Source of the DNA: a virus
Length of the DNA: 64,000 nt
Reading direction: 5' to 3' (one strand)
Virus record (IMG/VR): IMGVR_UViG_3300037459_000160
Span: 32,001-96,000 of that record
Position 1 is the first letter of the stretch. Every line of letters starts with the position of its first letter. A model generated the notes under the pieces. That model did no database searches, was not told where the DNA came from, and saw nothing but the letters and a program-made list of their open reading frames with translations. The translations under genes and the position numbers were made by a program. Positions 4,518-21,092 of this stretch are shown here, one piece after another.

Positions 4518-4718
4518 GTGGACAGTCAATCCGGTTACCAAGCAGATTCGTCGTTTTACGTTTTCCCGAGTGGTGGACGACGATGGCATTTATGGGATGG
4601 CAAAGGTTGCGGCAGTAAATGCGGGGTGGCGGTTCTTAGTAACGTTGCTTGGAAGTGGGATAAAATACCGGTAATCCTCCAGTGCAAACGATGTCTAAAA
4701 ACGAGAGATGAAAAATGA
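4518..4718 (+). CDS. small Cys/Trp-rich hypothetical protein
   Basis: GTG start after GGAG; WH..SKCG..CKRC; listed 4470 start overlaps the terminator. Confidence 0.55.
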   Translation: MDSQSGYQADSSFYVFPSGGRRWHLWDGKGCGSKCGVAVLSNVAWKWDKIPVILQCKRCLKTRDEK

Positions 4719-4921
4719 GTGAATCTTATAGATTTGTACGAGCAATCGTCGATTGTGGTGACCTACGGTGGGAATATCAGATTGATGTTGACGGAGCACC
4801 ACAAGGCGGCATGGCTCACGATGAGGATGTGTCGGATTGGACTGAGGACGACATAAGGTCATGTACGCGGTCGATGTTGGATTGCCCGGATGACCAAGAG
4901 ATTGAGATCGTTTACGCATAG
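4715..4921 (+). CDS. small acidic hypothetical protein
   Basis: ATGA overlap with upstream gene. Confidence 0.6.
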   Translation: MSESYRFVRAIVDCGDLRWEYQIDVDGAPQGGMAHDEDVSDWTEDDIRSCTRSMLDCPDDQEIEIVYA

Positions 4922-4937
4922 CGGGAGATAATAAAAA

Positions 4938-5336
4938 GTGGGCGTTTTCAATGATCCCAAAGTTTTGGACGCAAACAGGCGACTTGAGGAAAAGTTAACC
5001 GAGTGGGGCGGAAAGCTAAAACTCGGGTTTAACCAAACGGCGGCCGGTGATCCCTTACCCAATCCCGTTTCGTTGACAAACCTTTTTGCGAAGTTACAAA
5101 CCGATTTGTTGGATATGCGACGGGAACAAATCGTTTTGGGGGCAGCCGTGCGGCTAATGATTGAGGGCCTCGCGGGCAAGGATGCCGATGGAACGTTTGC
5201 AGCCGGAATGGCCGAGGCGATGGTTACCGACATTGATAGGCAACTTGCCAAACTTCAAGAATTGATTGTTGAGCAAAAGCAACAGGCGATGAAACCCAAA
5301 ATCAAGTTACCCCCCGGTTTTTCAGGTAGGAATTGA
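4938..5336 (+). CDS. hypothetical protein
   Basis: 132 aa, GGGAG RBS. Confidence 0.7.
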   Translation: MGVFNDPKVLDANRRLEEKLTEWGGKLKLGFNQTAAGDPLPNPVSLTNLFAKLQTDLLDMRREQIVLGAAVRLMIEGLAGKDADGTFAAGMAEAMVTDIDRQLAKLQELIVEQKQQAMKPKIKLPPGFSGRN

Positions 5337-5881
5337 TGAGCATTCTAATAACCGGCTCGGGCGAACTCACCCAGGAGATCGTTAAGGCTCTTGACGGCCA
5401 AGAGATTTACCGGATACATCCTAAGGCCGAGAGCCCCGAGCAACTCGCCGAGCTAGGCAAATATTGGCTCGATTATGATTTGCAAGAGCCTCAACACGTT
5501 GTTTTGGCCGTGCAAGATTTGGTAGGCGTAACCCTCTCGGCGGTGATTCATGCCGGGAGCGAACCGACCCCCGTTGACTGGCGAGCTATTAACCCGTTTG
5601 ATTTGCAACGCGAGTTTATGGCGAACGTGTTTGCCCCGTTAATGCTTACCAAATGGTTGCTCGATTTTGACATTTTGCCAACCTCGGGCCGCGTTATCTT
5701 TTTCACCGATTCCAGATTTCTTGGTAGTGGTTTTCTCGCGTATTACGCGGCTAAAGGGGCGTTAGTTAAGGCGGCCGACTGTTTTTTAAGTCAATTCCCC
5801 CGTTCGTTGTCTGTTAATTTCTTGGAGATTAGGGAACCCATTGATACGGCGGCCCAAGCCGCGACGATAGTAAAAGGATAG
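5333..5881 (+). CDS. degenerate short-chain dehydrogenase/reductase (SDR)
   Basis: ILITG start, NVFAP helix, GRVIF, YxxxK (YYAAK); Gly-rich loop incomplete. Confidence 0.7.
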   Translation: MMSILITGSGELTQEIVKALDGQEIYRIHPKAESPEQLAELGKYWLDYDLQEPQHVVLAVQDLVGVTLSAVIHAGSEPTPVDWRAINPFDLQREFMANVFAPLMLTKWLLDFDILPTSGRVIFFTDSRFLGSGFLAYYAAKGALVKAADCFLSQFPRSLSVNFLEIREPIDTAAQAATIVKG

Positions 5882-5886
5882 ACCAA

Positions 5887-6105
5887 ATGAATGATGATAA
5901 GTTGGTACAAAGAGCCGTTAAGAGTCTTCAGAATTTGCATATCAATTTTAGATATGAAAGTGGCGATGACCCGCATCCGTTAGATACTTGTCTTTGGGGT
6001 CGCGTAGCCCATATATTTGGTGTTGGCTCAACCCGAGCAATTGAGATGTGTAGACGTGCCGGCGTCGATCCTGAATACAGAGAGGAACCGGATGGCGGGT
6101 TTTGA
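5887..6105 (+). CDS. hypothetical protein, possible HTH-like
   Basis: LWGRVAHIFGVGSTRAIEMCRRAGVDP; AAGGA RBS. Confidence 0.6.
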   Translation: MNDDKLVQRAVKSLQNLHINFRYESGDDPHPLDTCLWGRVAHIFGVGSTRAIEMCRRAGVDPEYREEPDGGF

Positions 6106-6123
6106 ACCGTAAAGGGGTTACAG

Positions 6124-6414
6124 GTGAAATTCATAGGTGTATTTCCCGCGAACCCGTTCAAAATGTTTACGGTTTCCGATAAACCTTGTGAGCAACTTGG
6201 ACCATTAGCGGCGGTGTGTTCGGTTTGGTTACATAGGCGGGGCTCTGAGATTCTAAGATGCGAAGCTGAAAACAATCGTGTTGGGGATACCCTACAAAAA
6301 GTGGATTCCTTGAATACTTGGATTAAGGCCGGTGATTATCAACCCGGCGACATTTTGGAATTTACGGGGGTAAATGAACAATCGTCTGATATTCTGTTAA
6401 TTGCATACGAGTGA
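6124..6414 (+). CDS. hypothetical protein
   Basis: 96 aa; its TGA stop lies inside the 16-bp motif. Confidence 0.6.
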   Translation: MKFIGVFPANPFKMFTVSDKPCEQLGPLAAVCSVWLHRRGSEILRCEAENNRVGDTLQKVDSLNTWIKAGDYQPGDILEFTGVNEQSSDILLIAYE

Positions 6415-6426
6415 ACCCGGTTTCAC
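6411..6426 (+). promoter_or_regulatory. dispersed 16-bp motif copy 2
   Basis: exact copy; 22 nt before the -35 of the terminase promoter. Confidence 0.85.
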
Positions 6427-6448
6427 AAGCCGATTTCTGTTGAACGTA

Positions 6449-6477
6449 TTGACAATAGACGTTAAGCCCGCGATAAT
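6449..6477 (+). promoter_or_regulatory. sigma70-like promoter of packaging/head operon
   Basis: TTGACA-17 nt-GATAAT. Confidence 0.7.
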
Positions 6478-6514
6478 ATGCCGGGTTTACCGTCTTTTTG
6501 CGTTGAGGGACTGT

Positions 6515-7147
6515 ATGAGCGTTCCTACATTAGCCGAGACTTTGGGGCAACTTGACCAAACGCCCCCGGCCCCGAGTACGCCCGAGGAAAAGAAACGGGC
6601 CGAACTTTCTGACCTTAACGATGAGGAAAAGCGGGCTCAAGCGTATGCGTGGAAATTGCAGGGGCAATCAACCGAAGTAATTGCCCGAGCTTTTGGGATT
6701 GATTCTCGAACGATCCGCCGATGGTTCTTACGCACCGAAAGCGATTTTCGCGAACAGTTTGAGACGCAAACGGCCGCTAACATCATGTCCGAAAGCCTCT
6801 TGTTTCTCGGAAACATTGAGGAAATGGCAATGTATGAGGCCAATCAATCGGCCGGCGATGAACAAGAATACGACTTAAAATCGAGAAAGGTTAAGACCCC
6901 CAAAGAAGTCGAGCGAAACGCCAAACACATTACGGCTAAAATGCTAGTCGTCGCCCTAAAAGCTCGCGGGATGAAACTCGATTTGCTCTTGGAAACCGGT
7001 GTTTTACCCAAAGACCCCGGCCGGCTTTATCGGACGATGGAAAAAGAGGGAAACTTTGAACAAAGTGCCCACTCAAAATCTTCTCGTACGGCTGATCAAA
7101 TCCGTGATGATATGTTAAAGCTCGCCGAAGAAACTAAGCTAGTGTAG
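6515..7147 (+). CDS. terS: terminase small subunit (HTH)
   Basis: ATG 6515 after GAGGGA; HTH QGQSTEVIARAFGIDSRTIRRW; directly upstream of TerL. Confidence 0.75.
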   Translation: MSVPTLAETLGQLDQTPPAPSTPEEKKRAELSDLNDEEKRAQAYAWKLQGQSTEVIARAFGIDSRTIRRWFLRTESDFREQFETQTAANIMSESLLFLGNIEEMAMYEANQSAGDEQEYDLKSRKVKTPKEVERNAKHITAKMLVVALKARGMKLDLLLETGVLPKDPGRLYRTMEKEGNFEQSAHSKSSRTADQIRDDMLKLAEETKLV

Positions 7148-7156
7148 GGGCGGGAA

Positions 7157-8848
7157 ATGGTAAGACCAACCGGGGCCGACGTACTCAAAGACATTGAGGC
7201 CCGAGAACTTCAAATCGGCGAAAAGCTCTTGCAACTTCGCAAACATCGCCTCACGTTTGCGGTTGATTATCACATTAACACTCGCGGCGAAAAAATGGAG
7301 TTTGCGAATTATCCGCACATTCGCGAACTTTATAACTCGCTTGCCCGTGAAATCGTTTTGCAAGGTTCGGTCCAATGTTTTAAGAGTGAGTGGGCAGTTA
7401 TTGACCATTTCGCGGCAGCTTATTCCGGCCTCTCCGTTTTCTACGTGTTGGCCAAGTATGAATCCCGCAACACGTATGTACAAAACCGGATCAATCGTTG
7501 TGTTGAGCAAGTGCCGGAATACAAAAAAATCATCGGCCGAGGATTCTTTGATAATATCGCCCTTAAGAGTTTCGGAACCGGCGTTGTAAAATACGTGGGT
7601 TCTAACGTGTTGAGTGATTTCAAGGAATTCCCGGCTGACATGATCATTATTGATGAGGTTGATGAGTGCGACCCGACAAACATTCAATTTGCCTTGGACC
7701 GTATGCGGGCCTCACAATATCAGTTTATTCGGCGGCTAGGTAACCCCAAGATTCGCGGTAAGGGGATAAATAAATTCTTCCTTATGTCGGATCAACGAGA
7801 ATGGGAGGTACCTTGCAAACAATGCGACGAATACGCCGAAATGGATTGGTTTAAAACCGTTGTTTCCGAGGTGGTTGACCAACACGGCAACATAATTGAT
7901 TACACGTTACGCGATACCGATTGGGCCATTGGATGCCGGCGAGACGTTAGAGCCATTTGTCCCGCGTGCGGGGGCGAACTTGACCGCACAAGCCAAGAGG
8001 GGCGTTGGGTTCCGAGAAATCCGGGGCACCCCGTACACGGTTATCATATCTCAATGTTATGTGCCCCTATTAACCCTATTTCCGGCATGTGGGATCGGTT
8101 TCAAAAGGCAATGAATGACCCCGGATTATTGAAGCAATTCTTTAATTCTGATTTGGGGTTGCCCTATTCATCGGCGGGCAACAAGGTAACAACAACCGTT
8201 TTGGATCGTTGCGTTGATGAAAGTTACGAGTTTGCTATACGCCCGAACGCGGGACACGTTAAGGCCGATTCGGACACCGGCCCGTGTTCAATGGGAATTG
8301 ATGTAGGTGCTAATTTTGATGTGCGTATCTCGCGGCTTGGGGCACGCGGGCAGCGGCGAGCGGTTTACATTGGAAAAGTACGGGCGAGCAACATTGATGA
8401 GCTTTATGATTTGATCGACCGATACAACGTTGAGAAAGCCGTTATGGATGCCGGGCCTGAGTTGATGCTTGCCCAAGATTTCCAAGATACGGCTAATTGT
8501 GATGTTTGGTTGTGCCGGTATCATCCCAATGAAGGCAGCGACCGAAAACGCACATTCCAAATTCACGATCGGGTTGTTTCGATTGATCGAACCGAGGCCC
8601 TTGACCGATCCTATGCCCAAATCAAAAAGAAAAAGAACATCCTTCCTTTCAATTATCAATCAATTTTAGATGGGAAGTTTGTTACGGAAATTTGCGTACC
8701 CGTACGCCAGATTACCGAGGATGCCAAAGGTAACAGTCGGTACGAGTGGACAAAAGGCGTAGACCATTGCCGGCATTCGGACACGTACGATATGCTCGCG
8801 GCCGGGTTGTTGATGGACGTTACGATTGATGATGTTTCTATAGGATAA
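7157..8848 (+). CDS. terL: terminase large subunit, lambda gpA-like family
   Basis: QGSVQCFKSE deviant Walker A, IIIDEVD Walker B, SDQREWEVPCxxC, GYHIS, NSDLGLPY, nuclease MGIDVG and DH. Confidence 0.9.
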   Translation: MVRPTGADVLKDIEARELQIGEKLLQLRKHRLTFAVDYHINTRGEKMEFANYPHIRELYNSLAREIVLQGSVQCFKSEWAVIDHFAAAYSGLSVFYVLAKYESRNTYVQNRINRCVEQVPEYKKIIGRGFFDNIALKSFGTGVVKYVGSNVLSDFKEFPADMIIIDEVDECDPTNIQFALDRMRASQYQFIRRLGNPKIRGKGINKFFLMSDQREWEVPCKQCDEYAEMDWFKTVVSEVVDQHGNIIDYTLRDTDWAIGCRRDVRAICPACGGELDRTSQEGRWVPRNPGHPVHGYHISMLCAPINPISGMWDRFQKAMNDPGLLKQFFNSDLGLPYSSAGNKVTTTVLDRCVDESYEFAIRPNAGHVKADSDTGPCSMGIDVGANFDVRISRLGARGQRRAVYIGKVRASNIDELYDLIDRYNVEKAVMDAGPELMLAQDFQDTANCDVWLCRYHPNEGSDRKRTFQIHDRVVSIDRTEALDRSYAQIKKKKNILPFNYQSILDGKFVTEICVPVRQITEDAKGNSRYEWTKGVDHCRHSDTYDMLAAGLLMDVTIDDVSIG

Positions 8849-8851
8849 GCC

Positions 8852-9427
8852 ATGCCATTTGCCGGATTTGAAGATTTCGCGGAGTGCGTAGCGGCTCAAC
8901 AAAAACGGGATAAGGGCAAGGAATCCGCCCGGCGTATTTGCGGAGCCTTACAAGCTCAAGTTGAGAAAACCGCTATTGATTCCTCATCGGTGCCGAATTC
9001 CGTTGTTGTTCAAAATCGCGAGCTTGCGGCCCAAGGGCTTAACGCGATGGTCAAGAAACGCGGGATGGGCCGAGGCGTTTTGGATAGTGGGTTTTTGAGT
9101 GTTCGCGAAATAATTATCATGCGAAATAATCGTATGAGGATGTTGGCGATTCGGGGGTTTAATCTAGTAGCGAAAGCGGCCGGGTTAAACCTTAAAGAGT
9201 TTCGCGGAACAACGGGCCGGGGCGGTATCAATAACCATAAACACGTTATTGACCTTGACGACCTTGGGAACGGGCTTACCTCAACGAATGAGGGCCATAA
9301 CCATAGGGTAATCAATTTCATTGTACAGCCCTCACCTAATGGACACGTTCACCCCTTGAGCCGATCTGACTTAAAAAGGGTTATGAGCAAGGCGGGCTTT
9401 ACCGCATTGCGTGAAATGATTGGGTAA
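8852..9427 (+). CDS. His-rich head-associated protein carrying an MCP N-terminus-like peptide
   Basis: between TerL and portal; EKTAIDSSSVPNS; three HxH motifs (HKH, HNH, HVH). Confidence 0.75.
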   Translation: MPFAGFEDFAECVAAQQKRDKGKESARRICGALQAQVEKTAIDSSSVPNSVVVQNRELAAQGLNAMVKKRGMGRGVLDSGFLSVREIIIMRNNRMRMLAIRGFNLVAKAAGLNLKEFRGTTGRGGINNHKHVIDLDDLGNGLTSTNEGHNHRVINFIVQPSPNGHVHPLSRSDLKRVMSKAGFTALREMIG

Positions 9428-9430
9428 ACC

Positions 9431-11623
9431 ATGAGTGAGCAAGAACAAGCCGAGCTTGAGGCCGAGGCCGTCGAAAAGCTCAAGGATGATCCGGTTACGC
9501 CCGAGCAATCCGAGGCAACGTTGATTTCGGCGTTGGCCGATGCGGCGTATGAGACTTCCGAGGGCGATGAGCCCATAATTGAGGAAGTTTTCATAACGGA
9601 TGAGGAAACTATTGCCACGGCCGAGGATTTGATTAAGGAATTCACCCGAAAATCAATGCGATGTTTTGATGAAAGCCGCATTGTTTCGGATGAGGCAACA
9701 AGCCGGGGCTCAAGTGCCCTTTCGTTTTTGCTGGCGGGTAAGGGTGACAAGGAAAAAGAGCTTACCCAAAAGACCGCACGCGGTACGCAACAATCGGTAC
9801 GAGAACTTGGACGGGGTTCCATGGGTACCGATTTGGCGACAATCAAAGTCGTTGAGCCCCCATACCCGCCCGAGTTGCTCGCGGCGTTTCTTGAGGTTGA
9901 CGAAACGCATTTTCGTTGTGTACGGACCAAAGTTACCGATGCGATAGGGCGAGAGTTTGAGCTAGTTCCCACGGTAACGGTTGATCCCGATGAGAAGGAA
10001 GAAAAAGCGGGCCGCCCAAAGGCCCAAACACCCGATCCAAGGCCCCCACTGGGCAGCCTCGCGGACCCGACGCGGATTCTTGACCGAGATACTTCCGGCG
10101 TTAATCAAGGCCCCGGTGAGGCCCTTAACGATAACCGAACGCTTGTTGAGAAAATTGCAAAGGCTGGCGTTTCGGCGGTAAGCAACATTCAAAGGGAACA
10201 TACCCCAAAACGAACCGTCGTACCACAAGCCGAAGTTGACGCCGAGACTCAAGACATTGAAGATTTTATTGAGGATGCCAATGAGGTTCTCGGTTTTGAG
10301 GGCGTACTTGACCGAGCTTGTATGGATTATGAGGCGGTTGGGTGGGCAGCAATTGAAATTATCCGTTCGGCTGATTTCAAAATACGGCGGATTGCCCACG
10401 TACCCGCCCCCCGCGTGCGGGTGTTAAAAGGTTGGGCTGGATTCGTTGAGATTTTTGATAATACCGGGCTCAAGGGTAGCGTTGCGGGGGCTCATTTCCG
10501 ATATTATCAACCGTTCGGGAGTAAGGTCGTAATGCGGGCCGACGATCCGACAACGGGCGAAACGGTAGCGTACAACCCAAAAGACCACGGCCCTCTTGAC
10601 CCGGCAAAAGTTAAATGGAATCTTGTTGACCGCGAGACCGGCAAGCCAACCGAGGATATTTCTAGGGCGGCAAATGAAATCCTTTGGATTCCTAGGCATC
10701 ACGCAAATACGATTTATTATGGGTTTACCGATGTTGTGCCGGCCTTGGGTTGGTTACTTGCCAACGTTCATATTCGCGATTATCTGCTTTCATTTTTTGA
10801 ACACAACACGGTGCCCCGGTTCGCGGTAATCATCGAAGGGGCCAAGTTGAGCGAGCCGGTTAAGAAAGCGATTATGTCGTATTTCGGCACGCACGTTAAA
10901 GGCAAGGCTCACAAAACTTTGATTGTGCCGATTCCCGCGTTGCGAGGCGAGGTAAAGGTTAGGTTTGAAAAACTTGACGCGGACAACAAAGAGGGCAGTT
11001 TTCAGGATACGAAAAAGAACAACAGCCAAGGGATTATGACGGCTCATGGCGTAAGCCCGGCGATTATTGGTATTGCCGAATCGTCGGAATTAGGTTCGGG
11101 TAAGGGCTTGAGCCAAGCCGAAATTTACAAGGATAGGATTGTTACGCCAAGCCAACGCTATTGGGCTCGAAAACTTAACCGTATGTTTCGGCTCGGGCTT
11201 GGTACGACATTGGTTGCTATCAAGTTTAACCCGTTAGATATCCGAGACCGTAAAGCCGAACAAGAGGTTTTGACCGGGTATCTTAAAATGGGTGTTGCGA
11301 CGATTAACGAAGTACGCAAGCGGGCGGGGCTTGGTAAGCCTGTTGAGGGCGGGGATAGGGCTTTCGTAATTGTCGGAAACCAAATTATGTTTGTTGACGA
11401 ATTAACCGAGGCGATGGGTTCGGAATTGGAAGCCTTAACCGATGAACTTGAGCGTACGCAATCGGATATGGCGAACAAAGCCGCCGAGGAAAAGGGCCGC
11501 ATGGCGGGTGAGCGGCAAGCGGCGGCAGTTAATCCCCCCAGTGTGAGCAATGGCAACGGAAATCCCTCAACTCCTAATAAAGCCAACGGTAAGCAACCGG
11601 CAGCGGCAAAGGCGGGTTCGTAG
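9431..11623 (+). CDS. portal protein (PBSX/HK97-type)
   Basis: YYG..VPAL, Y...FF.HNTVPRFAVIIEG, HGVSP..IG, TINEVRK..GL.P.EGGD. Confidence 0.9.
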   Translation: MSEQEQAELEAEAVEKLKDDPVTPEQSEATLISALADAAYETSEGDEPIIEEVFITDEETIATAEDLIKEFTRKSMRCFDESRIVSDEATSRGSSALSFLLAGKGDKEKELTQKTARGTQQSVRELGRGSMGTDLATIKVVEPPYPPELLAAFLEVDETHFRCVRTKVTDAIGREFELVPTVTVDPDEKEEKAGRPKAQTPDPRPPLGSLADPTRILDRDTSGVNQGPGEALNDNRTLVEKIAKAGVSAVSNIQREHTPKRTVVPQAEVDAETQDIEDFIEDANEVLGFEGVLDRACMDYEAVGWAAIEIIRSADFKIRRIAHVPAPRVRVLKGWAGFVEIFDNTGLKGSVAGAHFRYYQPFGSKVVMRADDPTTGETVAYNPKDHGPLDPAKVKWNLVDRETGKPTEDISRAANEILWIPRHHANTIYYGFTDVVPALGWLLANVHIRDYLLSFFEHNTVPRFAVIIEGAKLSEPVKKAIMSYFGTHVKGKAHKTLIVPIPALRGEVKVRFEKLDADNKEGSFQDTKKNNSQGIMTAHGVSPAIIGIAESSELGSGKGLSQAEIYKDRIVTPSQRYWARKLNRMFRLGLGTTLVAIKFNPLDIRDRKAEQEVLTGYLKMGVATINEVRKRAGLGKPVEGGDRAFVIVGNQIMFVDELTEAMGSELEALTDELERTQSDMANKAAEEKGRMAGERQAAAVNPPSVSNGNGNPSTPNKANGKQPAAAKAGS

Positions 11624-14600
11624 ACTTAGCCGGTTGATTGTTGTTAAGGCGGCCTCAAGTGGAATTCGATTAAGACTTGAGCGAGACCTTGAGAACAAGT
11701 TACGGCGAATCATTCGCGAACTTTTCGCCGAATTACGGCAAAGCCTTTCCAGTAGATTCCTCCAAGGGATCGGCCGTCAAGCGAACCTGTTTAGGCGTAC
11801 CGCACGCGGGCCCGCACGCACACGCACGCGGGCAGCCAATGAGCTTACGCGGGCCTTCATGGGCCCTTTACGCGATGTGTTGCTCGATACCGAGCAACTT
11901 GCCGCGTTTCGTTATTGGCTCGGCATATCTCAAATACGGGCGTATGAGTATGGGGCGGTAACCGCGTTGCGGGCGATGGGATTTGCGGCAACCTCGCGAC
12001 GGGTTCAAGAGATTGAGAAACGCATTACGGTTTCAAAGGCGGCTGGCGATATCGTCTTTGAGTTGACCGATGCTGAGTTGATTAACGAGCTTGAGGGCCG
12101 GCCGATCGTAGTTGGGGCGGGCCTTGCCCCGGCCGTTGTTGAGGATGCCCGCAAGTTAATTCGGGATGAGTTGTTTTTGGGTAACGCCAGCACGGGTGAG
12201 GGCGGAATTTCCGATTTGATCTTGGCGGGCGGCCAAGTGCCGGAATACCGAGCGTTGCGGATTTCCCGAACCGAAACCCAATCCGCCTTTAATCAAGGAT
12301 TTTACAAAGTCGAACAGCGTTCGGGAATCAAAAAACATTCATGGGTGACGGTGGGCGATAGGCGAGTAAGGCCAGAACACGCAATGAATGAGGATTCTGG
12401 CGATATTCCCATTGGCGATCCTTTTGCGTCGTTGCAAATCCATCCCGGCGATCCCGGCCCACTGGTTTTACACGTTAATTGTCGGTGTTCACTTCAACCA
12501 GATTTATCCGATCCCAATATTTTGCTTGACCCGTGGGCGGGCGATTCCGGGGCCAACCTTAAGACCGATCCGACATTACCGGGCATTCCTCCAAAAATCG
12601 GCAAAATCAGGACCGCATTGAATCAAGCCCAAGCGAGGGCACGGGCAGCGATCCGAGCCGAGGGCGAGGCAATAAAGGCCAGGAAACTAGCCGAAGCCGG
12701 GGCCCAAGCAGCGGCCAAGAAAAAGACCGTTCAAGAATCTAAGGCGGTTGCAAGTACCAAGAGTGAGTTTGAGGCGATTGTTAAAAGTATTGATGCCGAT
12801 GATACATTTTTCAAGATTAGTCAACTTGGCGATAAGTTGAAAGGTTTGAGCAAGGCCGAGGCCCAAGAGCTTGCAAAACAACTAGGGTTTGTATCCAAGC
12901 AATCGTTTGCGACCAAGAAAAAAGCAATTCAAACCATTACGGGCGAGTTGAAAAAGTTTGCCAAATCGGCCGGGGATGTTAAGGGCGTTGATAAAGCCTT
13001 TGGAGAATTCGTATTTGCCACCAAGCCGGTTAGAGAGGCAGCGGAGCAAAAGTTTAAGGTGGAAGCCTTAGAGGATGTAAATAAAGCCAAGTCGGTTTTG
13101 AAAGGCAGTACCAAGGCGATTGACGTTGCCACGTTGGACGCGGCGACGGCGGCCGACTATGCGGAGTTTCTTGAGTGGCAAGCGGTGCAAGCTGGAAAAA
13201 CTCAGAGTTATGGCGTTGTTATCTTTGACGATCAAGGGCGGGTATTACTTCGGCGGGCCAAGGGGGATTTCGGCGGTACCCGTTGGTCATTTGCTAAGGG
13301 CGGGGGAACCAAGCCCGGTACAACGGCACTTAAAGAACTTGCGGAGGAAACCGGGCACCAAGCCAATATTACCGGGGCAATCAAAGGGGATTTTGAGGGC
13401 ACAACCACAAAAAATAACTACTTTGTTGGACGCAAAAAGGGCAAGTTTGATGCGGCCCTTATGGACGCGGAAACAGAGGAAGTGATTTGGGTAGATTTCA
13501 ATGAGGCAAAGAAACTCATAAAGCAATCCCCGAGTGAGTTGATTGTAAAACGTGATCTTGCCGTATTGGATGGGGCGTTTGATGAGATAAGCGGAAACTC
13601 AACAGCGTTAAAGGCGTTGGCAAAGAAAACCGAAACCAAGAAAAAGGTTGTCGATCTTGGCAAGCAACAAACGGCGGCGGCCGATGAGCTTATTGACGCG
13701 GCCAAGCAGTTACAAAAAGCCGCACAAGGCGACCCCGAGGCAGTAAGCAAGCTTTCCAAGGCCGTTAAGAATTTGAAAAAACTAGGCGTTTCCGATACCA
13801 AAATTCAAGAGCTTACCAAAGCGGGCATACAGGCGGGCAAGACCGCCAAGGCTCAAGGAATCCTTGACAATCTCAAAGGTAAGTTGCCAAAAACAATTGA
13901 TGAAATTGATAACGTGGTTGCCGAGCTTAAGAAGTTACAAGCCGGCCTCGGCGGGCTTGAGGCCGAAGTTGATGAGGCAGTTTCCAAAAAGCTCAAATCA
14001 CTCGGCAGCAAGAAAAGCCAACTCAAAAAGAAACTCAAACCAACAGCCAAGCCGGATGAGCCGGAAGTGCTAATAGCCCTAGACATACAAGCCCCAACGA
14101 CTCAAGCATTAAAGGAAGAATTTGAGGCAACGGTTACAAAATCGGAATTGGGTTCGTTATTTAGTCAAACCGAGGCTAAGTTACTTGCCGAGGATTTGAA
14201 AAACGCGGGCGTATCCGCCGACGAAATCGCCAAACTTCAAAAATCGGGAGTACAGGCGGGCAACGAGAAAAAGGCCAAGAGCTTTATTGAGGCTCAAACG
14301 GGAGCGGGCTTGCCCGATGGTCTGGATGATCTTAATGAGCTTGAGGATAAGGTTTTTGGCTTCCTCCAAAAGGGTTTCAAAGATCCCGCACTAGAAAAGA
14401 AATTTGAAGGGGCGTTAAAGAACATTGATTTGAAGAAAAAGGAAATCTTTGCGAAGCCGGCAGCCACGAAAGCCGAAATCAAAGCTCAAAATACCAAAGC
14501 TAACTCACTCGCCAATACTAACCCTCAATCGCTCCAAGATATTAAGGTTGTTGAGGAAGAATTGAAGGCGTTGCAAAATCTCGGTAATCTTAACCCGACT

Positions 14601-16169
14601 ACCGATTTTTCGGTTGACAGCAAGTTACAGGTACTCCAATTCAAGAAAAGCCAACTCCAAAAGAAAGCCGCGAAACCAACAACCGGGCCAACCTCGGCGG
14701 ATATTCTCAAGAAAGCTGAAGCGGCCGACGCGAAACTTAAAGCCGAGCTTGAGGCCCTTGATGATATTAAGATCATTACCGAACCGATTCCAAAACCGAT
14801 TAAGGTAGATTTGGCCGATTTCCCGCCCGCCGATAAACTTGGTCGGTTGGATGAACTTAAGACGCTACCCGGTTCCACGGGGGCCAAGTTGGTTCAAGAC
14901 CCGCGAACGGGCAAAAAGTATGTACTCAAACGCGGAAACCAAAAATTATCTAAAGAGGCTCGCGAGGCACATTTACGCGAGGAATTTCTTGCCGACGACC
15001 TTTACCGGGCGGCCGGCGTTGACGTACCGGCCGGCGTGTTGTATGAGACCGCGAGCGGGCCGGTAAAGCTAACGGAATTCATTGAGGGTACCGAAGATTT
15101 GGCAACCGTACTTGCTAAGGGCGGGTCAAGAGCCAAAAAGGTACTCACCAAAATACAAGGGGATTTTGCCGAGGATGCCCTATTCGCGAATTGGGATGTT
15201 ATCGGCTTGAGCCAGGATAATATTCTTGTAACCAAGACCGGTAAGGTTTTGAGAATTGATAACGGCGGGGCGTTAAGGTTCCGAGCCCAAGGGGCCCCCA
15301 AGGGTAGTCATTTTGGAAATGATGTTGGAGAACTTGCTAGTTTACGAAGCTCGGCGGCCGGGAAAGAAGTGTTTGGACAGTTGACCGATGAGGCAGTTGC
15401 CAAGCAGATTTTCGCGTTGCAATCAAAAAGGGAAGTAATACTTGCCACGATCAAAGACCGAGCGTTAAGAGCGACGATTTCTAAACGCTTAGACTCAATG
15501 AAAACTTGGGCCGATGATGTAATTGAGAAAATTGCAACACGAAAGAAGAATTTGGCTAGTGGTAGAAAACTTAGGCCCGGCGAATTCTCAAACGATCCCG
15601 TAGCTATTGACCCAAGAATTGAAAATCGGGCCACGTTTATAACACCCAAGGCGAAAAAGGCAGCCGAGGAAACGGCACCATTGCGAGAAATGACGAAAAA
15701 ACTTAGAGACTTGGGCCCGCGTGAACATTCGGCGATTGAGGACTATTCGGGTTCATCCTATAGAAGGCTCAATTCTAACTTGCGTAAGGGTAAAAGCCTT
15801 ACGGACGATCAATTACAAATGGTCAAGGGTATTGATGTCGGGCTTGCCGAGGTACCCTCGGCAGCTAAAGAACACCCGGTTGTATTTCGCAAGTTGGAGC
15901 AAGAGGGGCAAAAACTTGAGGCGTTCTTAGCTAAGCATCCCGAGGGCGGCATTGTCTCGTATAACGAATACCTTTCAACCTCATTTTCTAAAGGTACTTG
16001 GAGCGGGAATATTGAGTATGAAATAAGACACAAGACCGGCCGACGAATCAAAGAAATATCGTTGCATCGTAGTGAGGATGAGGTTTTGTTTGGTAGGGGA
16101 GCGGAATTTTTAGTTGAGAGAGTGGAACGGACGGGCAACCGGGTAAAGATTTTCCTAACGGAGTTGTAA
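11550..16169 (+). CDS. MuF head morphogenesis protein fused to Nudix, HipA/PI3K-like kinase and ADP-ribosyltransferase domains (start uncertain)
   Basis: Mu[26 protein letters not shown]; Nudix [17 protein letters not shown]; kinase GSTGA..YVLK..NWDVIG..DNIL..RIDNG; ART Y...SY..LN..LR, VFR, YLSTS, EDEVL. Confidence 0.9.
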
Positions 16170-16590: not shown

Positions 16591-18192
16591 ATGGCGGCTC
16601 CCATACGTGAATTGCTGCATATTACCGCCCCCATTGCGTTTCAAGTTGAGGGCGAGGGTGAGAACAAGCCAATTCAGCGGGTTATCGTTAAAGGGTTCGC
16701 ATCGGTAGAAACCGGCGATCGTTCGGGCGACATTGTTCCACCTGAGGAATTCAACATTGAAAGGTTTATGGCAGCCCCTACGCTTTTGCTCAATCATCGG
16801 TTTTGGACCGATCCAATGGGCAACCGGGTTGCAATCGGTCGGCCTCTCACAATGAATCCGGTTAAGCTCGGCAAGATAGCCGGCGACGATGATAATTGGG
16901 CAATCATCGACTTAAAAACCAAAAAACAAATTGATAAGTTTCCAAAGGTCAAGGTACCCGATTTGAAAGCGGGCAGCCGTGGCCTTTTTATTACGGCTGA
17001 GATAACGGTACCGGAAGTTGCCGGGATGGTTGTACGCGGTGAGCTTTCCGCGTTTAGCTGGAAGGGCATGACGCTTGTTGAGTTTCGTTTCAATACGAAA
17101 CTCGGGCGTGTCGAGCGGGTGTTATTGGATATCGACCTTTTTGAGGTTTCTTTAACACACGTTCCCGATAATCCTGATTCAACACTTATCGTGGCAAAAG
17201 CGGTCAAGGAAATTATTCTTGAGAAAAGCCGGTTTGAGAGTCGTGAGCAAGCTGTTGCATACATGAATCATCACAATTTAACCGGGGCCGTTCGCGAGGA
17301 CGAGACCCGGTTTTATTCGCGTTTGTTGGACCCCTCGCGGATTGATAACGAAAAGCTCGTTACCGCAAAAATGGCCGAGGGTGTAACGGCGATTGTTGGA
17401 CCGTTACATAATCCCGGTGAGTGGCTGTTTGGGGATTTGCCGCAAGAGGAACGCGAAAGGATCAACAATCTTTACGATGCATCCGATACCGTTTCGGGTG
17501 CCGATTCGGATTCCGTTGATACGGAGGGCTCAAGTATGAGCGACACGGCACAAGCCCAAGACGCGGGAGCCGAGGTTACGGCAACCGATGCGGGCGATAA
17601 GGAAACGAAAGAAAAGGCCGGGAATTTGGGCGGTGCTGGTGGTGCTGGCGGTGCGATTTCCGGTGACGATAAAGAAGCGAAAACGAAAGCCGGGCATAAG
17701 GCAGTTGCGGCCAAGTCCAATGATGAGGCAATGGGGGCATTTGCCTCGGACATTGCCACACAAACGGCGGCTGGAGTTGTGAGCGGTCTCAAGCCCGTGT
17801 TTGAGGCTCAAACGGTGGCCCTCGCGACAATGGGCACGCTGATTGAAAAGATGGCCGGGGGAGTTGACGCGGGAGCCGAAACCCCGAGCGAACAGAAACC
17901 GAAAACGGAAACGGAAACGGACGACCTTGCCGCACAAGTGGCAAAGCAAGAGGCCGCGAAAACCGCGAACCTCAACGATGTTATGGGTCAACTCAACGCA
18001 TTGGCTGACGGGTTGCAGCAAACCCAACAGGCCGTTGTAACCGTCGCGAAATCGGCGGCAGCAATGGGGGCTCAAATTCCCAACGCGGCCGGCTCACGTT
18101 CCGAGAAACTTCCGGCTGAGAAATCAGTTGAGGAAGGCGACGATCCGAACGATTGCTTTGACAATACGTTTGGATTCCTTGGGGGCCAATAA
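16591..18192 (+). CDS. HK97-type prohead protease fused to C-terminal scaffold region
   Basis: KGFAS...DRSGDIV, LLNH, GELSAFS, LFEVSL..VPDNP; acidic/Ala-rich C-terminal half. Confidence 0.9.
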   Translation: MAAPIRELLHITAPIAFQVEGEGENKPIQRVIVKGFASVETGDRSGDIVPPEEFNIERFMAAPTLLLNHRFWTDPMGNRVAIGRPLTMNPVKLGKIAGDDDNWAIIDLKTKKQIDKFPKVKVPDLKAGSRGLFITAEITVPEVAGMVVRGELSAFSWKGMTLVEFRFNTKLGRVERVLLDIDLFEVSLTHVPDNPDSTLIVAKAVKEIILEKSRFESREQAVAYMNHHNLTGAVREDETRFYSRLLDPSRIDNEKLVTAKMAEGVTAIVGPLHNPGEWLFGDLPQEERERINNLYDASDTVSGADSDSVDTEGSSMSDTAQAQDAGAEVTATDAGDKETKEKAGNLGGAGGAGGAISGDDKEAKTKAGHKAVAAKSNDEAMGAFASDIATQTAAGVVSGLKPVFEAQTVALATMGTLIEKMAGGVDAGAETPSEQKPKTETETDDLAAQVAKQEAAKTANLNDVMGQLNALADGLQQTQQAVVTVAKSAAAMGAQIPNAAGSRSEKLPAEKSVEEGDDPNDCFDNTFGFLGGQ

Positions 18193-18279: not shown

Positions 18280-19287
18280 ATGAGTATGGATGCACAAATC
18301 AAACTGCCTCTGAAGCAATTGATGGAGAAATCCGCGATTGATTCAAGCAGTCTGCCGAATTCAATAATGAACCGGCAGCAAGCAAACCGTTTTATTGACC
18401 TTGTGGTTGATGAATCGGTCTTGATCAAAATGTCTCGGGTTGTTAAAGTCAATCACCCCAAGGGTGAAATCAACAAACTTGACCTTGGCGATATCGTTAC
18501 CGAGGGAGCCCACACAACGAGCCGGGCAACAACGCGAACCCCGAGCGAGAGAATCGTAACGTACGATATGGAAAAATATCGTTCGGCGTTCGATTTGAAA
18601 ACCGATTTCATGGAAGATAACCTTGAGCGGGCCGGTATCCGCGATACCCTCTTGCAAATGTTTAGCAAGCGGATTGCGATTGATACCGAGCTTGCCGCAA
18701 TCGAGGGTGACGATTCGTTGACGACCGGCGACGGTCAAACCGATGAGAACAATTTGTTGGGCGTGAATGACGGCTGGCAAAAAATTCTCGAAAACGCGGT
18801 ACCGGCCGCCCAACAGCTAGACGCGGCCGGGTTTGCCCCCTCCAAGCGGTTGTATTACGATATGAAACGGCTCATCCCGAGCCGGTATCGTGCGGCCAAG
18901 CCGAATTACACTTGGGTTACGCCCTCGGGGCCGGCCGACAAGTGGGCCTTGGATTGGAGTGACCGCGAAACGGCGGGCGGTGATCGGGCGTTGGCGACTA
19001 ACCAACGGCCGGGGCCTTGGGGAATCCCAATGCTTGAGGTTCCGTTGATGCCGGAAAACCTGCCCTTCGGTACGAGCGGCGTCGATGGTTCGTCAATCTG
19101 GTTGACCCCGTTGAAAAACCTGATTTACTTCATTCAACGGGAAATCACGATTGAGTTTGACCGGCAGCCCCGGCAAGACGTTTGGGAAGTGACCATCCAT
19201 TTCCGCGTCGATTTCGAGGTTGAAAACGTGGATTTGGTCATTTTGGCCAACAACGTTTCAATGAGTGGCAACGACTATACCGGCTAG
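18280..19287 (+). CDS. major capsid protein (HK97 fold)
   Basis: 335 aa after protease; Q.NRFIDLVVDES.L, FMEDNLE, IEGD, pattern typical of phage MCPs. Confidence 0.9.
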   Translation: MSMDAQIKLPLKQLMEKSAIDSSSLPNSIMNRQQANRFIDLVVDESVLIKMSRVVKVNHPKGEINKLDLGDIVTEGAHTTSRATTRTPSERIVTYDMEKYRSAFDLKTDFMEDNLERAGIRDTLLQMFSKRIAIDTELAAIEGDDSLTTGDGQTDENNLLGVNDGWQKILENAVPAAQQLDAAGFAPSKRLYYDMKRLIPSRYRAAKPNYTWVTPSGPADKWALDWSDRETAGGDRALATNQRPGPWGIPMLEVPLMPENLPFGTSGVDGSSIWLTPLKNLIYFIQREITIEFDRQPRQDVWEVTIHFRVDFEVENVDLVILANNVSMSGNDYTG

Positions 19288-19381: not shown

Positions 19382-20617
19382 ATGTTGCCCGAGGGAATCC
19401 AACAGATCGAAGCCCGCGAAGTGTTGCGGACGTTGCCCGAGAACGTTACAGGTAAAAAGATTGCCTTACGTTTGACGGGTGGGGTTGGCGATGCTGTGAT
19501 TGCAATTGGGGGCGTTGCGTATGCGTTGCGTAAAGAGGATTGCCAAATTACGGCGGCCGTAATGCCTCACCAAATTCCGTTAATGTTGGAAATGGTGGGC
19601 GTTGATAAGGCAGTTGAGGGGAGATTACTTAACCGTCCCGACATTTGCCAAAAATACGATTCTATCGTTTCATTCTCGGGCGTGTTCAATTCCCATCGGG
19701 AGTTACGGGCGGGAGGGTATTACAACCTTGTGAGCGACCGTACGGGCCTCAGGGTGGGGCCCGGCAAGTTTGCCTTTGAGCCAATTGCTCAACCGCGTGC
19801 GAGCGAGCGTACGGGCGTTCTCGGTCGTATACCGTACAAAGTGCGACGGGTAGCGATGCACCCAGGTTCAAGTAACCCGAATCGTTGTTGGGTATCCGAG
19901 CGTTGGCGAGAGCTTGCGTATGAGTTGCGGGACCGAGGGTGTAAAATCCTTTGGTTAGGTACTCGCGATGAGATGGGGTTTAATGCCGAGGGTATTTCCA
20001 AGATGAGCGACGAAACCGAGGATTTGGTTTTACAAGCCGAAGTCCTCGGGAATTGCGATTACTTCATTGGCAACGATTCGGGTTTTGCTCACATTGCGGG
20101 CGTGTTGAATGTGCCCGGTCTTGTGCTGTTTTTTAGTACAGCGGCCGAGGATGTAATACACGCATACCCAAGATTGAAAGGTGTTGACGTTTACGAACGG
20201 TCAAACGTTAAGCCGAGCCGAAGTTTGAGCCAAGGTTGTAAGGTTGCCGAGGTAGCACAACAGGCGATGAGTGTTGCCGATGTTTTGAAGGCAACGGGCC
20301 TTTATTCGGTTTCCCCGAAACGCGGTTCGCGTACGGAGGGTAAAGCCGTGGCAATAAAACTCGCGATTCTCGGGCAACCCGAAAATCCAACTTTAACCTT
20401 GTTGCGGGATTTCCTTATCAAGCACAATTACGAAGTGAAGCTATTGAGAAACGCCCCGACGCATGGGATGGAATTCGATTGTTTTATTTTATTGACCGGC
20501 AGCCGGTGCCGTTTGCAGGTAAAGGGTACGAGTGTTGCCGTTGATATCTCCAACCTTGAGAACGTTAGGCGAGCAATTCGCGAGTTGCTCCTAAGGGGCG
20601 ATGATGAGCAAACTTAA
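19382..20617 (+). CDS. GT9 (ADP-heptose heptosyltransferase-like) glycosyltransferase
   Basis: GGVGDAV, HPGSS...RCW, FIGNDSGFAHIAG. Confidence 0.9.
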   Translation: MLPEGIQQIEAREVLRTLPENVTGKKIALRLTGGVGDAVIAIGGVAYALRKEDCQITAAVMPHQIPLMLEMVGVDKAVEGRLLNRPDICQKYDSIVSFSGVFNSHRELRAGGYYNLVSDRTGLRVGPGKFAFEPIAQPRASERTGVLGRIPYKVRRVAMHPGSSNPNRCWVSERWRELAYELRDRGCKILWLGTRDEMGFNAEGISKMSDETEDLVLQAEVLGNCDYFIGNDSGFAHIAGVLNVPGLVLFFSTAAEDVIHAYPRLKGVDVYERSNVKPSRSLSQGCKVAEVAQQAMSVADVLKATGLYSVSPKRGSRTEGKAVAIKLAILGQPENPTLTLLRDFLIKHNYEVKLLRNAPTHGMEFDCFILLTGSRCRLQVKGTSVAVDISNLENVRRAIRELLLRGDDEQT

Positions 20618-21092
20618 AGATGCGATGCAAGCGATACGGGAAACGCCCCGATCGGCCATTGGGGATATTGAGGAATTAACGGGCCGGCTGGATGAGGCCG
20701 AGACCGCAAAGCGGCAAGCCTTTTTATTTTTGCGGGGCGTTATTGAGTTGGCCCCAGTGGCCATTATTGTTTGCGATTGTGAGGGGAAGTTTAAGGTTTG
20801 GAACGAAAAGGCAAATGAACTTGTTGGGGATAAGCCCAAAGACGTACCCCCCGAGTTTTGGCCCCAAGCGTACCAACTTTTTGACCCTTCCGACCATACG
20901 AAATTGATTGAAAAAGCCCCGCTAGCCGAGGCCCTTGAGACCGAGCGAGAGGTACACAAGTTTATGTGGATCGGTAATGGTTCCCGCCGATTGGTTGAGT
21001 GTGTTGCCCGGCCCGTTTATTGTATTCAAAGACTAATTGGGGCCGTGGTCTACTTCAAGGAATCGGAAACTCATGACCGACGATCCTTTTGA
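20601..21092 (+). CDS. stand-alone PAS domain protein with N-terminal coiled coil
   Basis: FLRGVIELAPVAIIVCDCEGKFKVWNEKANELVG...IGAVVYF PAS signature. Confidence 0.8.
   Translation: MMSKLKDAMQAIRETPRSAIGDIEELTGRLDEAETAKRQAFLFLRGVIELAPVAIIVCDCEGKFKVWNEKANELVGDKPKDVPPEFWPQAYQLFDPSDHTKLIEKAPLAEALETEREVHKFMWIGNGSRRLVECVARPVYCIQRLIGAVVYFKESETHDRRSF

Follow-up and report, generated by a model that had tools for sequence, protein, structure and literature searches.

The HK97 protease cuts the major capsid protein (MCP) between K103 and S104, just before the N-arm (PMC10275583). In P2, the gpO protease-scaffold fusion removes 31 N-terminal residues from the MCP, cuts itself and probably also cuts the portal (PMC7552001). 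Short sequences that accompany other proteins have been described as well: the capsid-targeting sequence (CTS) of T4, a leader on internal proteins that is removed by the prohead protease (PMC3012670); the N-terminal packaging signal of P1 DarB (PMC9024508); and the Prp cleavage motif of 80alpha, which the CP and SP share with ribosomal protein L27 and which also occurs on non-homologous proteins of other phages (PMC5744158).

The locus described here lies in a stretch of 64,000 nucleotides (the window), which is part of a 104.7-kb IMG/VR virus record, and consists of a head-morphogenesis operon on the + strand. One gene of this operon, ORF191, occupies the slot between the genes for the terminase large subunit (TerL) and the portal protein, and its product combines a widespread N-terminal module, a peptide shared with the MCP of the same virus and a basic C-terminal part. 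The peptide, a putative tag, can be regarded as analogous to the T4 CTS and to the shared cleavage motif of 80alpha.

A modular protein between the terminase and portal genes

ORF191 starts 4 nt past the TerL stop codon and ends 3 nt before the ATG of the portal gene (Table 1). The two genes share a reading frame, with only the TAA and one codon between them (9425-9433), a layout that may be due to chance because it is not kept in the related loci L008 or L245 (see below). The MuF-family polyprotein encoded further downstream contains a Mu F-like head-morphogenesis domain (aa 228-315), a NUDIX domain (aa 552-658) and a C-terminal ADP-ribosyltransferase domain (PF03496, aa 1383-1537), in addition to a weak kinase-like match below the cutoff (E=0.088) and four motifs of the form phi-x-K-[ST]-[AVI] in its linkers. 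It looks like a MuF-anchored effector that is packaged in the head. The MCP gene is directly followed by genes for a family-9 glycosyltransferase (GT9), an enzyme that may modify the capsid, and then for a PAS-domain protein; ORFs resembling the GT9 gene occupy the equivalent place in the relatives L005 and L008.

Table 1. Genes of the head-morphogenesis operon and parts of their products, with positions in the window
Feature	Positions	Strand	Remarks
HTH protein, possibly TerS	6401-7147	+	
TerL (terminase large subunit)	7157-8848	+	PF05876/PF20454, phrog_675; upstream border of the slot
ORF191	8852-9427	+	191 aa, pI 10.4; small, basic and modular protein of the head operon, encoded between TerL and portal
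ORF191, module A	8852-8959	+	aa 1-36, consensus to ~aa 44; helical hairpin, MPFAGFEDFxxCV...ARRICGALQA
ORF191, MCP-junction mimic	8960-9025	+	aa 37-58, VEKTAIDSSSVPNSVVVQNREL; core 13-mer 8963-9001; putative scissile bond K39↓T40
ORF191, basic middle segment	9026-9196	+	aa 59-115; 11 K+R vs 2 D+E, pI 12; low-confidence helices in the model
ORF191, module C	9197-9376	+	aa 116-175; three conserved HxH motifs in a small beta-domain
Portal protein	9431-11623	+	PF04860; immediately 3' of ORF191
MuF-family polyprotein	11550-16169	+	1539 aa
102-aa ORF			between the MuF polyprotein and the protease-scaffold fusion
Prohead protease-scaffold fusion, presumed enzyme	16591-18192	+	phrog_80
Protease-scaffold fusion, C-tail	17950-18192	+	EKSVEEGDDPNDCF
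MCP (major capsid protein)	18280-19287	+	XkdG-like; phrog_1623, PF05065
MCP, N-terminal leader			aa 1-17
MCP, matching peptide	18325-18363	+	aa 16-28
Family-9 glycosyltransferase	19382-20617	+	PF01075; directly 3' of the MCP gene
PAS-domain protein	20601-21092	+	

ORF191 as a whole had no match in Pfam, PHROGs or PDB sequence searches, or by tblastn against 50,697 GenBank phages; at the sensitivity used, tblastn also found no cultured member of the clade in GenBank. A fold search with the whole model against the PDB and BFVD gave no credible match. An exhaustive profile search, on the other hand, resolves the protein into two unrelated, widespread modules that are joined by a unique middle.

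The first of these, module A, carries the N-terminal motif MP[FY]xG[FY]xxFxxC ... [AS]xx[IV]CG and is modelled by AF2 with a pLDDT of 94-98. Residues 1-44 match dozens of proteins at E=1e-9 to 1e-4, encoded at loci that include L001-L003. Elsewhere the module is N-terminal in proteases of the XkdF (PF14550) and Mu gpI-like (PF10123) types and, in one case, in a portal; it also heads a fused scaffold-MCP gene (L001, 870 aa), in which no protease family was detected. Its neighbours in an atlas structure search include ClpP-type proteases (PF00574) and a cluster in which only 20% of the members contain Peptidase_S78. ORF191 lacks a protease domain after module A, as do P0034 and the L245 protein. 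The module was missed by the first-pass annotation of this DNA, and its first 36-44 residues, rather than the peptide that follows, may be the targeting part.

The basic segment and the three HxH motifs (HKH, HNH and HVH) that the same annotation had noticed are present, the former at aa 61-115. The basic middle has no homologues besides a near-identical fragment (P0005). Module C, in contrast, is widespread: its pattern of three spaced HxH motifs, the first and second of which are separated by a GxGxT(S) loop, recurs in P0002 (E=1e-13), P0006, P0010 and others, and an alignment of 22 sequences contains five invariant histidines (H18, H20, H40, H54 and H56), a near-invariant one (H38) and two invariant glycines. 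The first-pass annotation considered the cargo as putatively metal-binding. The AF2 model of this module has a pLDDT of about 90, and a fold search with the module alone (VIA wide) gave no credible match (best Z 3.6). Module C occurs elsewhere alone, in tandem copies (P0006, P0010, P0086) or 3' of Peptidase_S78 (P0013 passes the Pfam cutoff and P0035 is below it), and it matches the C-terminal end of phrog_15223 ('protease'). The copy in P0086 lies inside a large protein that, from its sequence, resembles a polytopic membrane protein; the module is therefore not confined to phage head proteins. Modules A and C, neither of which has a Pfam name, are thereby defined as companions of prohead proteases of several families.

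A peptide shared with the major capsid protein

The starting observation of the first-pass annotation was that ORF191 contains a copy of an N-terminal peptide of the MCP, and the copy is indeed there: EKTAIDSSSVPNS in ORF191 and EKSAIDSSSLPNS in the MCP are identical in 11 of 13 residues and in 28 of 39 nucleotides, and are followed by NREL and NRQQ, respectively, with an offset of two residues. BLASTP stretches the match to 42 residues (40% identity, 71% positives, E=1e-5 for the pair). The AF2 model places the mimic where the second helix of module A ends and a linker of lower confidence takes over, and in sequence the peptide begins exactly where the module A consensus (...QA-x-V-E-K) stops. 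No third copy was found in the full 104.7-kb record. As a control for chance, in each of about 45 related loci the MCP N-terminus was searched against the remaining ORFs of that locus. The best non-self match scored 38.4 bits in the window, as compared with 15.5-24.4 bits in the roughly 40 loci that have no mimic, and the mimics of two other phages scored 47.7 and 50.7 bits. The likeness between ORF191 and the MCP thus exceeds chance.

Among the 13 codons of the peptide, six are identical in the two genes, five are synonymous but different and two change the amino acid. The synonymous pairs include TCA/AGC and TCG/AGT, that is, serines of the TCN and AGY types. With only six identical codons, the earlier statement that the conservation is at the protein level, and not the trace of a recent DNA copy, stands; codon usage rules out recent duplication or gene conversion as the origin of the peptide. 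For the L008 protein and its own MCP, 16 of 20 residues are identical, encoded by six identical and ten synonymous but different codons; for the L245 protein and the MCP of the same contig (L130), the corresponding numbers are 12 of 21 residues, three identical and nine synonymous but different codons. In addition, the peptide is invariant in the P0034 cluster, where module A varies. Judging from these comparisons, the peptide is kept by selection on the protein.

Behind the module A leader, the 3xHxH domain of ORF191 is one among several cargos, all of them strongly basic (pI 10.3-11.3). In a marine lineage from Tara (L008/L009), the TerL-portal slot contains a 204-aa protein in which the tag KSAIDSSSLPNSTANREQG (own MCP, SKSAIDSSSLPNSVLNREQA) is attached to a basic DUF5824 cargo, and only the first 57-65 residues of this protein align with ORF191. 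The slot protein of L245/L244 is 361 aa long and carries the tag VAKSPIDSSSLPNSVASPKQG (MCP, MSKSAVDSSSLPNSVLNREQA) and a Lys-rich tail. A carrier that follows TerL on an incomplete contig (L199) combines VAKAAVDSSSLPNSVANPEQG with a Lys-rich tail, and P0007, a protein of 85 aa, combines EAIDSTSLPNSVANREQG with a short basic tail. In L228, a single ORF that starts right after TerL (4535-6493) fuses module A to the portal (PF04860; the MCP, L108, is on the same contig), and of the peptide it has VEKSAEDEE only: VEKSA is kept and the remainder is absent. The peptide had been suggested to be portable, and in other phages the leader to which it belongs indeed precedes three or four C-terminal parts that are unrelated to one another. 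Because the same copy occurs on different cargos, in phages with the exact MCP variant, the leader of ORF191 looks like a natural, portable tag for capsid processing or loading.

A metagenome scan revealed no new tag lineage, only the L008/L009 type again and the incomplete L245-type carrier L199, and a scan of genome contigs revealed none. At 35 other loci, the linker after module A has no likeness to any local ORF, which rules out copying of the local MCP by this linker as a general rule; since these loci show none, the mimicry is specific to this MCP clade.

The slot of the marine lineage contains one or two more small basic genes (L008:9506-9826; L009:9383-9999). A 106-aa slot gene of this lineage belongs to phrog_7595 and weakly matches (E=0.0011) the end of a 'minor head protein and DNA pilot' family. 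DUF5824, the Pfam name given to the domain in P0034, was also spotted by its signature TPAPKKDQ...VYRRGxGA...SHRP in many marine phage contigs (L010-L087), where its partners are long N-terminal regions resembling HK97-type prohead proteases and small N-terminal modules (for instance, MPYFITDD..CSGWA). DUF5824 is another promiscuous accessory module of head proteins.

A slot gene with module A is present in four lineages, namely the window, L008/9, L245 and L228. About 18 related lineages in which both TerL and the portal are visible have no such insertion: the two genes abut (gap <45 nt) or there is no module A gene. Co-variation of the peptide with the MCP across relatives, the check proposed by the first-pass annotation, is borne out: the MCP variant D-S-S-S is found in every one of the four lineages that have the module A gene there and in none of the ~18 slot-less relatives, a comparison that amounts to only 2-3 independent contrasts. 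The slot-less relatives have DETS, DESS, DQTS, DSTS, DANS and other variants. Among 27 MCP variants, the ORF191 tag scores best against its own MCP. The carriers are not monophyletic, and at least two changes are required by the tree of the MCP body. L199, L245 and L008/9 form one clade in the TerL tree, where L228 lies apart and the window is sister to the slot-less L103 (DQTS) with a support of 98/92.

Possible functions of the shared peptide

The presumed enzyme of this head, the protease-scaffold fusion, matches phrog_80 at E=1.8e-10 and Peptidase_S78 (PF04586) only at E=0.17, below the cutoff, and has no significant similarity to ORF191. The reading of the peptide as a shared protease site agrees with the residues around the putative bond, which is preceded in both proteins by a lysine with a hydrophobic residue before it (LMEK↓SA in the MCP, at K17↓S18, and QVEK↓TA in ORF191); this K↓S/T junction matches that of HK97 at K103/S104 (PMC10275583). 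The C-terminal part of the scaffold contains three motifs of the form phi-x-K-[ST]-[AVI], against 0.37 expected (P=0.007, for a motif defined post hoc, after the data had been seen). The C-tail of the scaffold (EKSxxxDPNSVF) weakly resembles the MCP peptide and is the best non-self match in three loci. This tail is conserved clade-wide as RDEK-x-x-EK-x(3-6)-DPN-x-x-F-x-x-x-F/W-P-F, and its likeness to the MCP lies in K-S-A...P-N-S-V. In the PDB, a profile built from the MCP clade found no more than a weak match to the P2 family.

Because the junctions are alike, and in view of the distribution of the motif and the precedents of HK97 and P2, we favour the explanation that the leader is cleavable. 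By analogy with the described systems, it would route small basic internal proteins into the procapsid and would be cut there by the prohead protease at K↓S/T, like the MCP; we judge the chances of this to be about even. ORF191 would then belong to a small group of accessory proteins of the head interior whose genes are inserted between those of the terminase and the portal and which are built from three parts: module A; the junction copy, with the pattern hydrophobic, x, K, S/T, (A/P)(I/V)DSSS(L/V)PNS; and a strongly basic cargo, which in ORF191 would be the basic stretch together with the 3xHxH domain. Elsewhere, module A heads proteins that become part of the procapsid, namely several families of prohead protease and, in one case, a portal. 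Late in infection, ORF191 would enter the assembling procapsid with the core of portal and protease-scaffold, the prohead protease would read the junction copy exactly as it reads the MCP N-terminus, and the cut would part module A from the basic cargo, which would remain associated with the packaged DNA and may be ejected together with it. A site copied from the MCP would couple processing to capsid maturation and would force the tag to follow the MCP variant. A further possibility, which we consider rather doubtful, is that the junction copy is a co-evolving encapsidation tag and that the cleaved cargo, now with the N-terminus of a mature MCP, plugs N-arm sites of the shell, such as those that are empty at the portal vertex.

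The main rival, which we think unlikely, is that the mimic of the N-arm acts by docking: with or without prior cleavage, IDSSSLPNS would fill the site of a neighbouring MCP's N-arm on the MCP or the scaffold, with the vacant sites around the portal vertex as candidates, and would thereby anchor a basic protein to the inner shell or help to join portal and shell. The invariant part of the mimic, IDSSSLPNS, falls downstream of the putative cut, and the K↓S/T position itself varies, P0007 having K-E; a docking motif therefore fits these two facts better than a simple scissile site. The BLASTP similarity reaching 42 residues into the N-arm, the weak PNSVF resemblance of the scaffold C-tail, the in-frame abutment of ORF191 and the portal gene and the fusion of module A to the portal in L228 are also in favour of docking. 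However, the mimics lack the N-arm helix that follows in the MCP (QANRFIDLVV), the L228 portal fusion has lost the peptide, the MCP clade has no structure that shows a binding partner of the segment, and about 18 relatives assemble without any such protein. For the earlier suggestion that the peptide nucleates portal-capsid assembly, the adjacent portal gene and the one fusion of module A to a portal, which lacks the peptide, are only circumstantial support. Alternatively, ORF191 may regulate the prohead protease in trans, its pseudo-substrate MCP site occupying or timing the enzyme until assembly. The copied site does belong to the main substrate, and modules A and C are associated with proteases at their N- and C-termini, respectively, and are both missing from the clade's own protease-scaffold; but other carriers have DUF5824 or Lys-rich tails in place of module C, most relatives lack the gene, and ORF191 has no similarity to the protease itself, so that we find this role improbable.

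Two further explanations seem very improbable. In one, a third enzyme recognises the Ser-rich peptide as a common modification site, for instance for O-glycosylation by the family-9 glycosyltransferase. GT9-like enzymes can heptosylate serines in autotransporters, the peptide offers three consecutive serines, and the GT9 gene lies directly downstream of the MCP gene, with similar ORFs likewise placed in relatives; yet such an ORF is also present in a relative that has a non-SSS variant and no slot gene (L005), and a literature search on capsid glycosylation by GT9 enzymes returned nothing relevant. The other regards the peptide as an inert recombination scar, a functionless trace left by an old piece of the MCP or by a gene in which protease, scaffold and MCP were fused. 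The head modules of phages are mosaic, and a fused module A-scaffold-MCP gene does exist (L001), but in three lineages identical residues persist although synonymous sites are near saturation, no other part of the leader is as well conserved as the peptide, and the peptide tracks the MCP variant; the evidence already speaks against this reading.

If the leader does work as a tag that routes cargo into the procapsid, copying the MCP maturation junction onto a protein would be a simple evolutionary route to a new head cargo, and the need for the tag to match the capsid variant would be explained. The tag would also provide a sequence rule for finding packaged, and possibly injected, proteins in uncultured phages, and a rule for engineering cargo loading into HK97-fold capsids.

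Comparison with known systems

The likeness to the T4 CTS and to P1 DarB lies in a short, portable N-terminal leader on unrelated and often basic cargos (PMC3012670, PMC9024508), and the cargos of the ORF191 type are likewise basic, as are the internal proteins of T4. In contrast, the Pfam and PHROG searches show no sequence relation between those leaders and that of ORF191, which consists of a folded module of 36-44 residues that is common to prohead proteases and precedes a near-exact copy of the MCP junction. Genes of the ORF191 type, moreover, sit in the TerL-portal slot, and the packaging of their products is putative.

As in 80alpha, a conserved peptide at a protease site, which in ORF191 is a putative one, is common to the MCP and a second protein of the head. 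The 80alpha motif, however, precedes an F↓A bond, imitates a protein of the host and is processed by a protease of the host, whereas the part that ORF191 shares with the MCP is internal in ORF191 and falls mostly after the K↓S/T bond, and the presumed enzyme is the phage's own protease-scaffold. An extreme N-terminal, L27-like motif ending in F↓A, of the 80alpha type, is absent from the sequence of ORF191. The layout of genes in the window is P2-like, with a protease-scaffold followed by an MCP without a delta domain. No extra protein with a copied MCP junction is known, however, in either HK97 (gp5/gp4) or P2 (gpN/gpO).

Encapsulin cargo-loading peptides are short and portable and direct diverse cargos into a shell of the HK97 fold; they sit at the C-terminus and are not known to be cleaved or to be copies of the shell-protein sequence. 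The tag described here resembles them in being a short, portable peptide found with diverse cargos, and differs from them in being a copy of the MCP, in its position ahead of the cargo and in its putative cleavage. If the junction copy is indeed a co-evolving encapsidation tag, any protein with module A and the MCP junction would be loaded and anchored in the HK97-fold capsid, and the leader would be the natural counterpart, in tailed phages, of the encapsulin cargo-loading peptides, one that could be programmed by matching the tag to the MCP variant.
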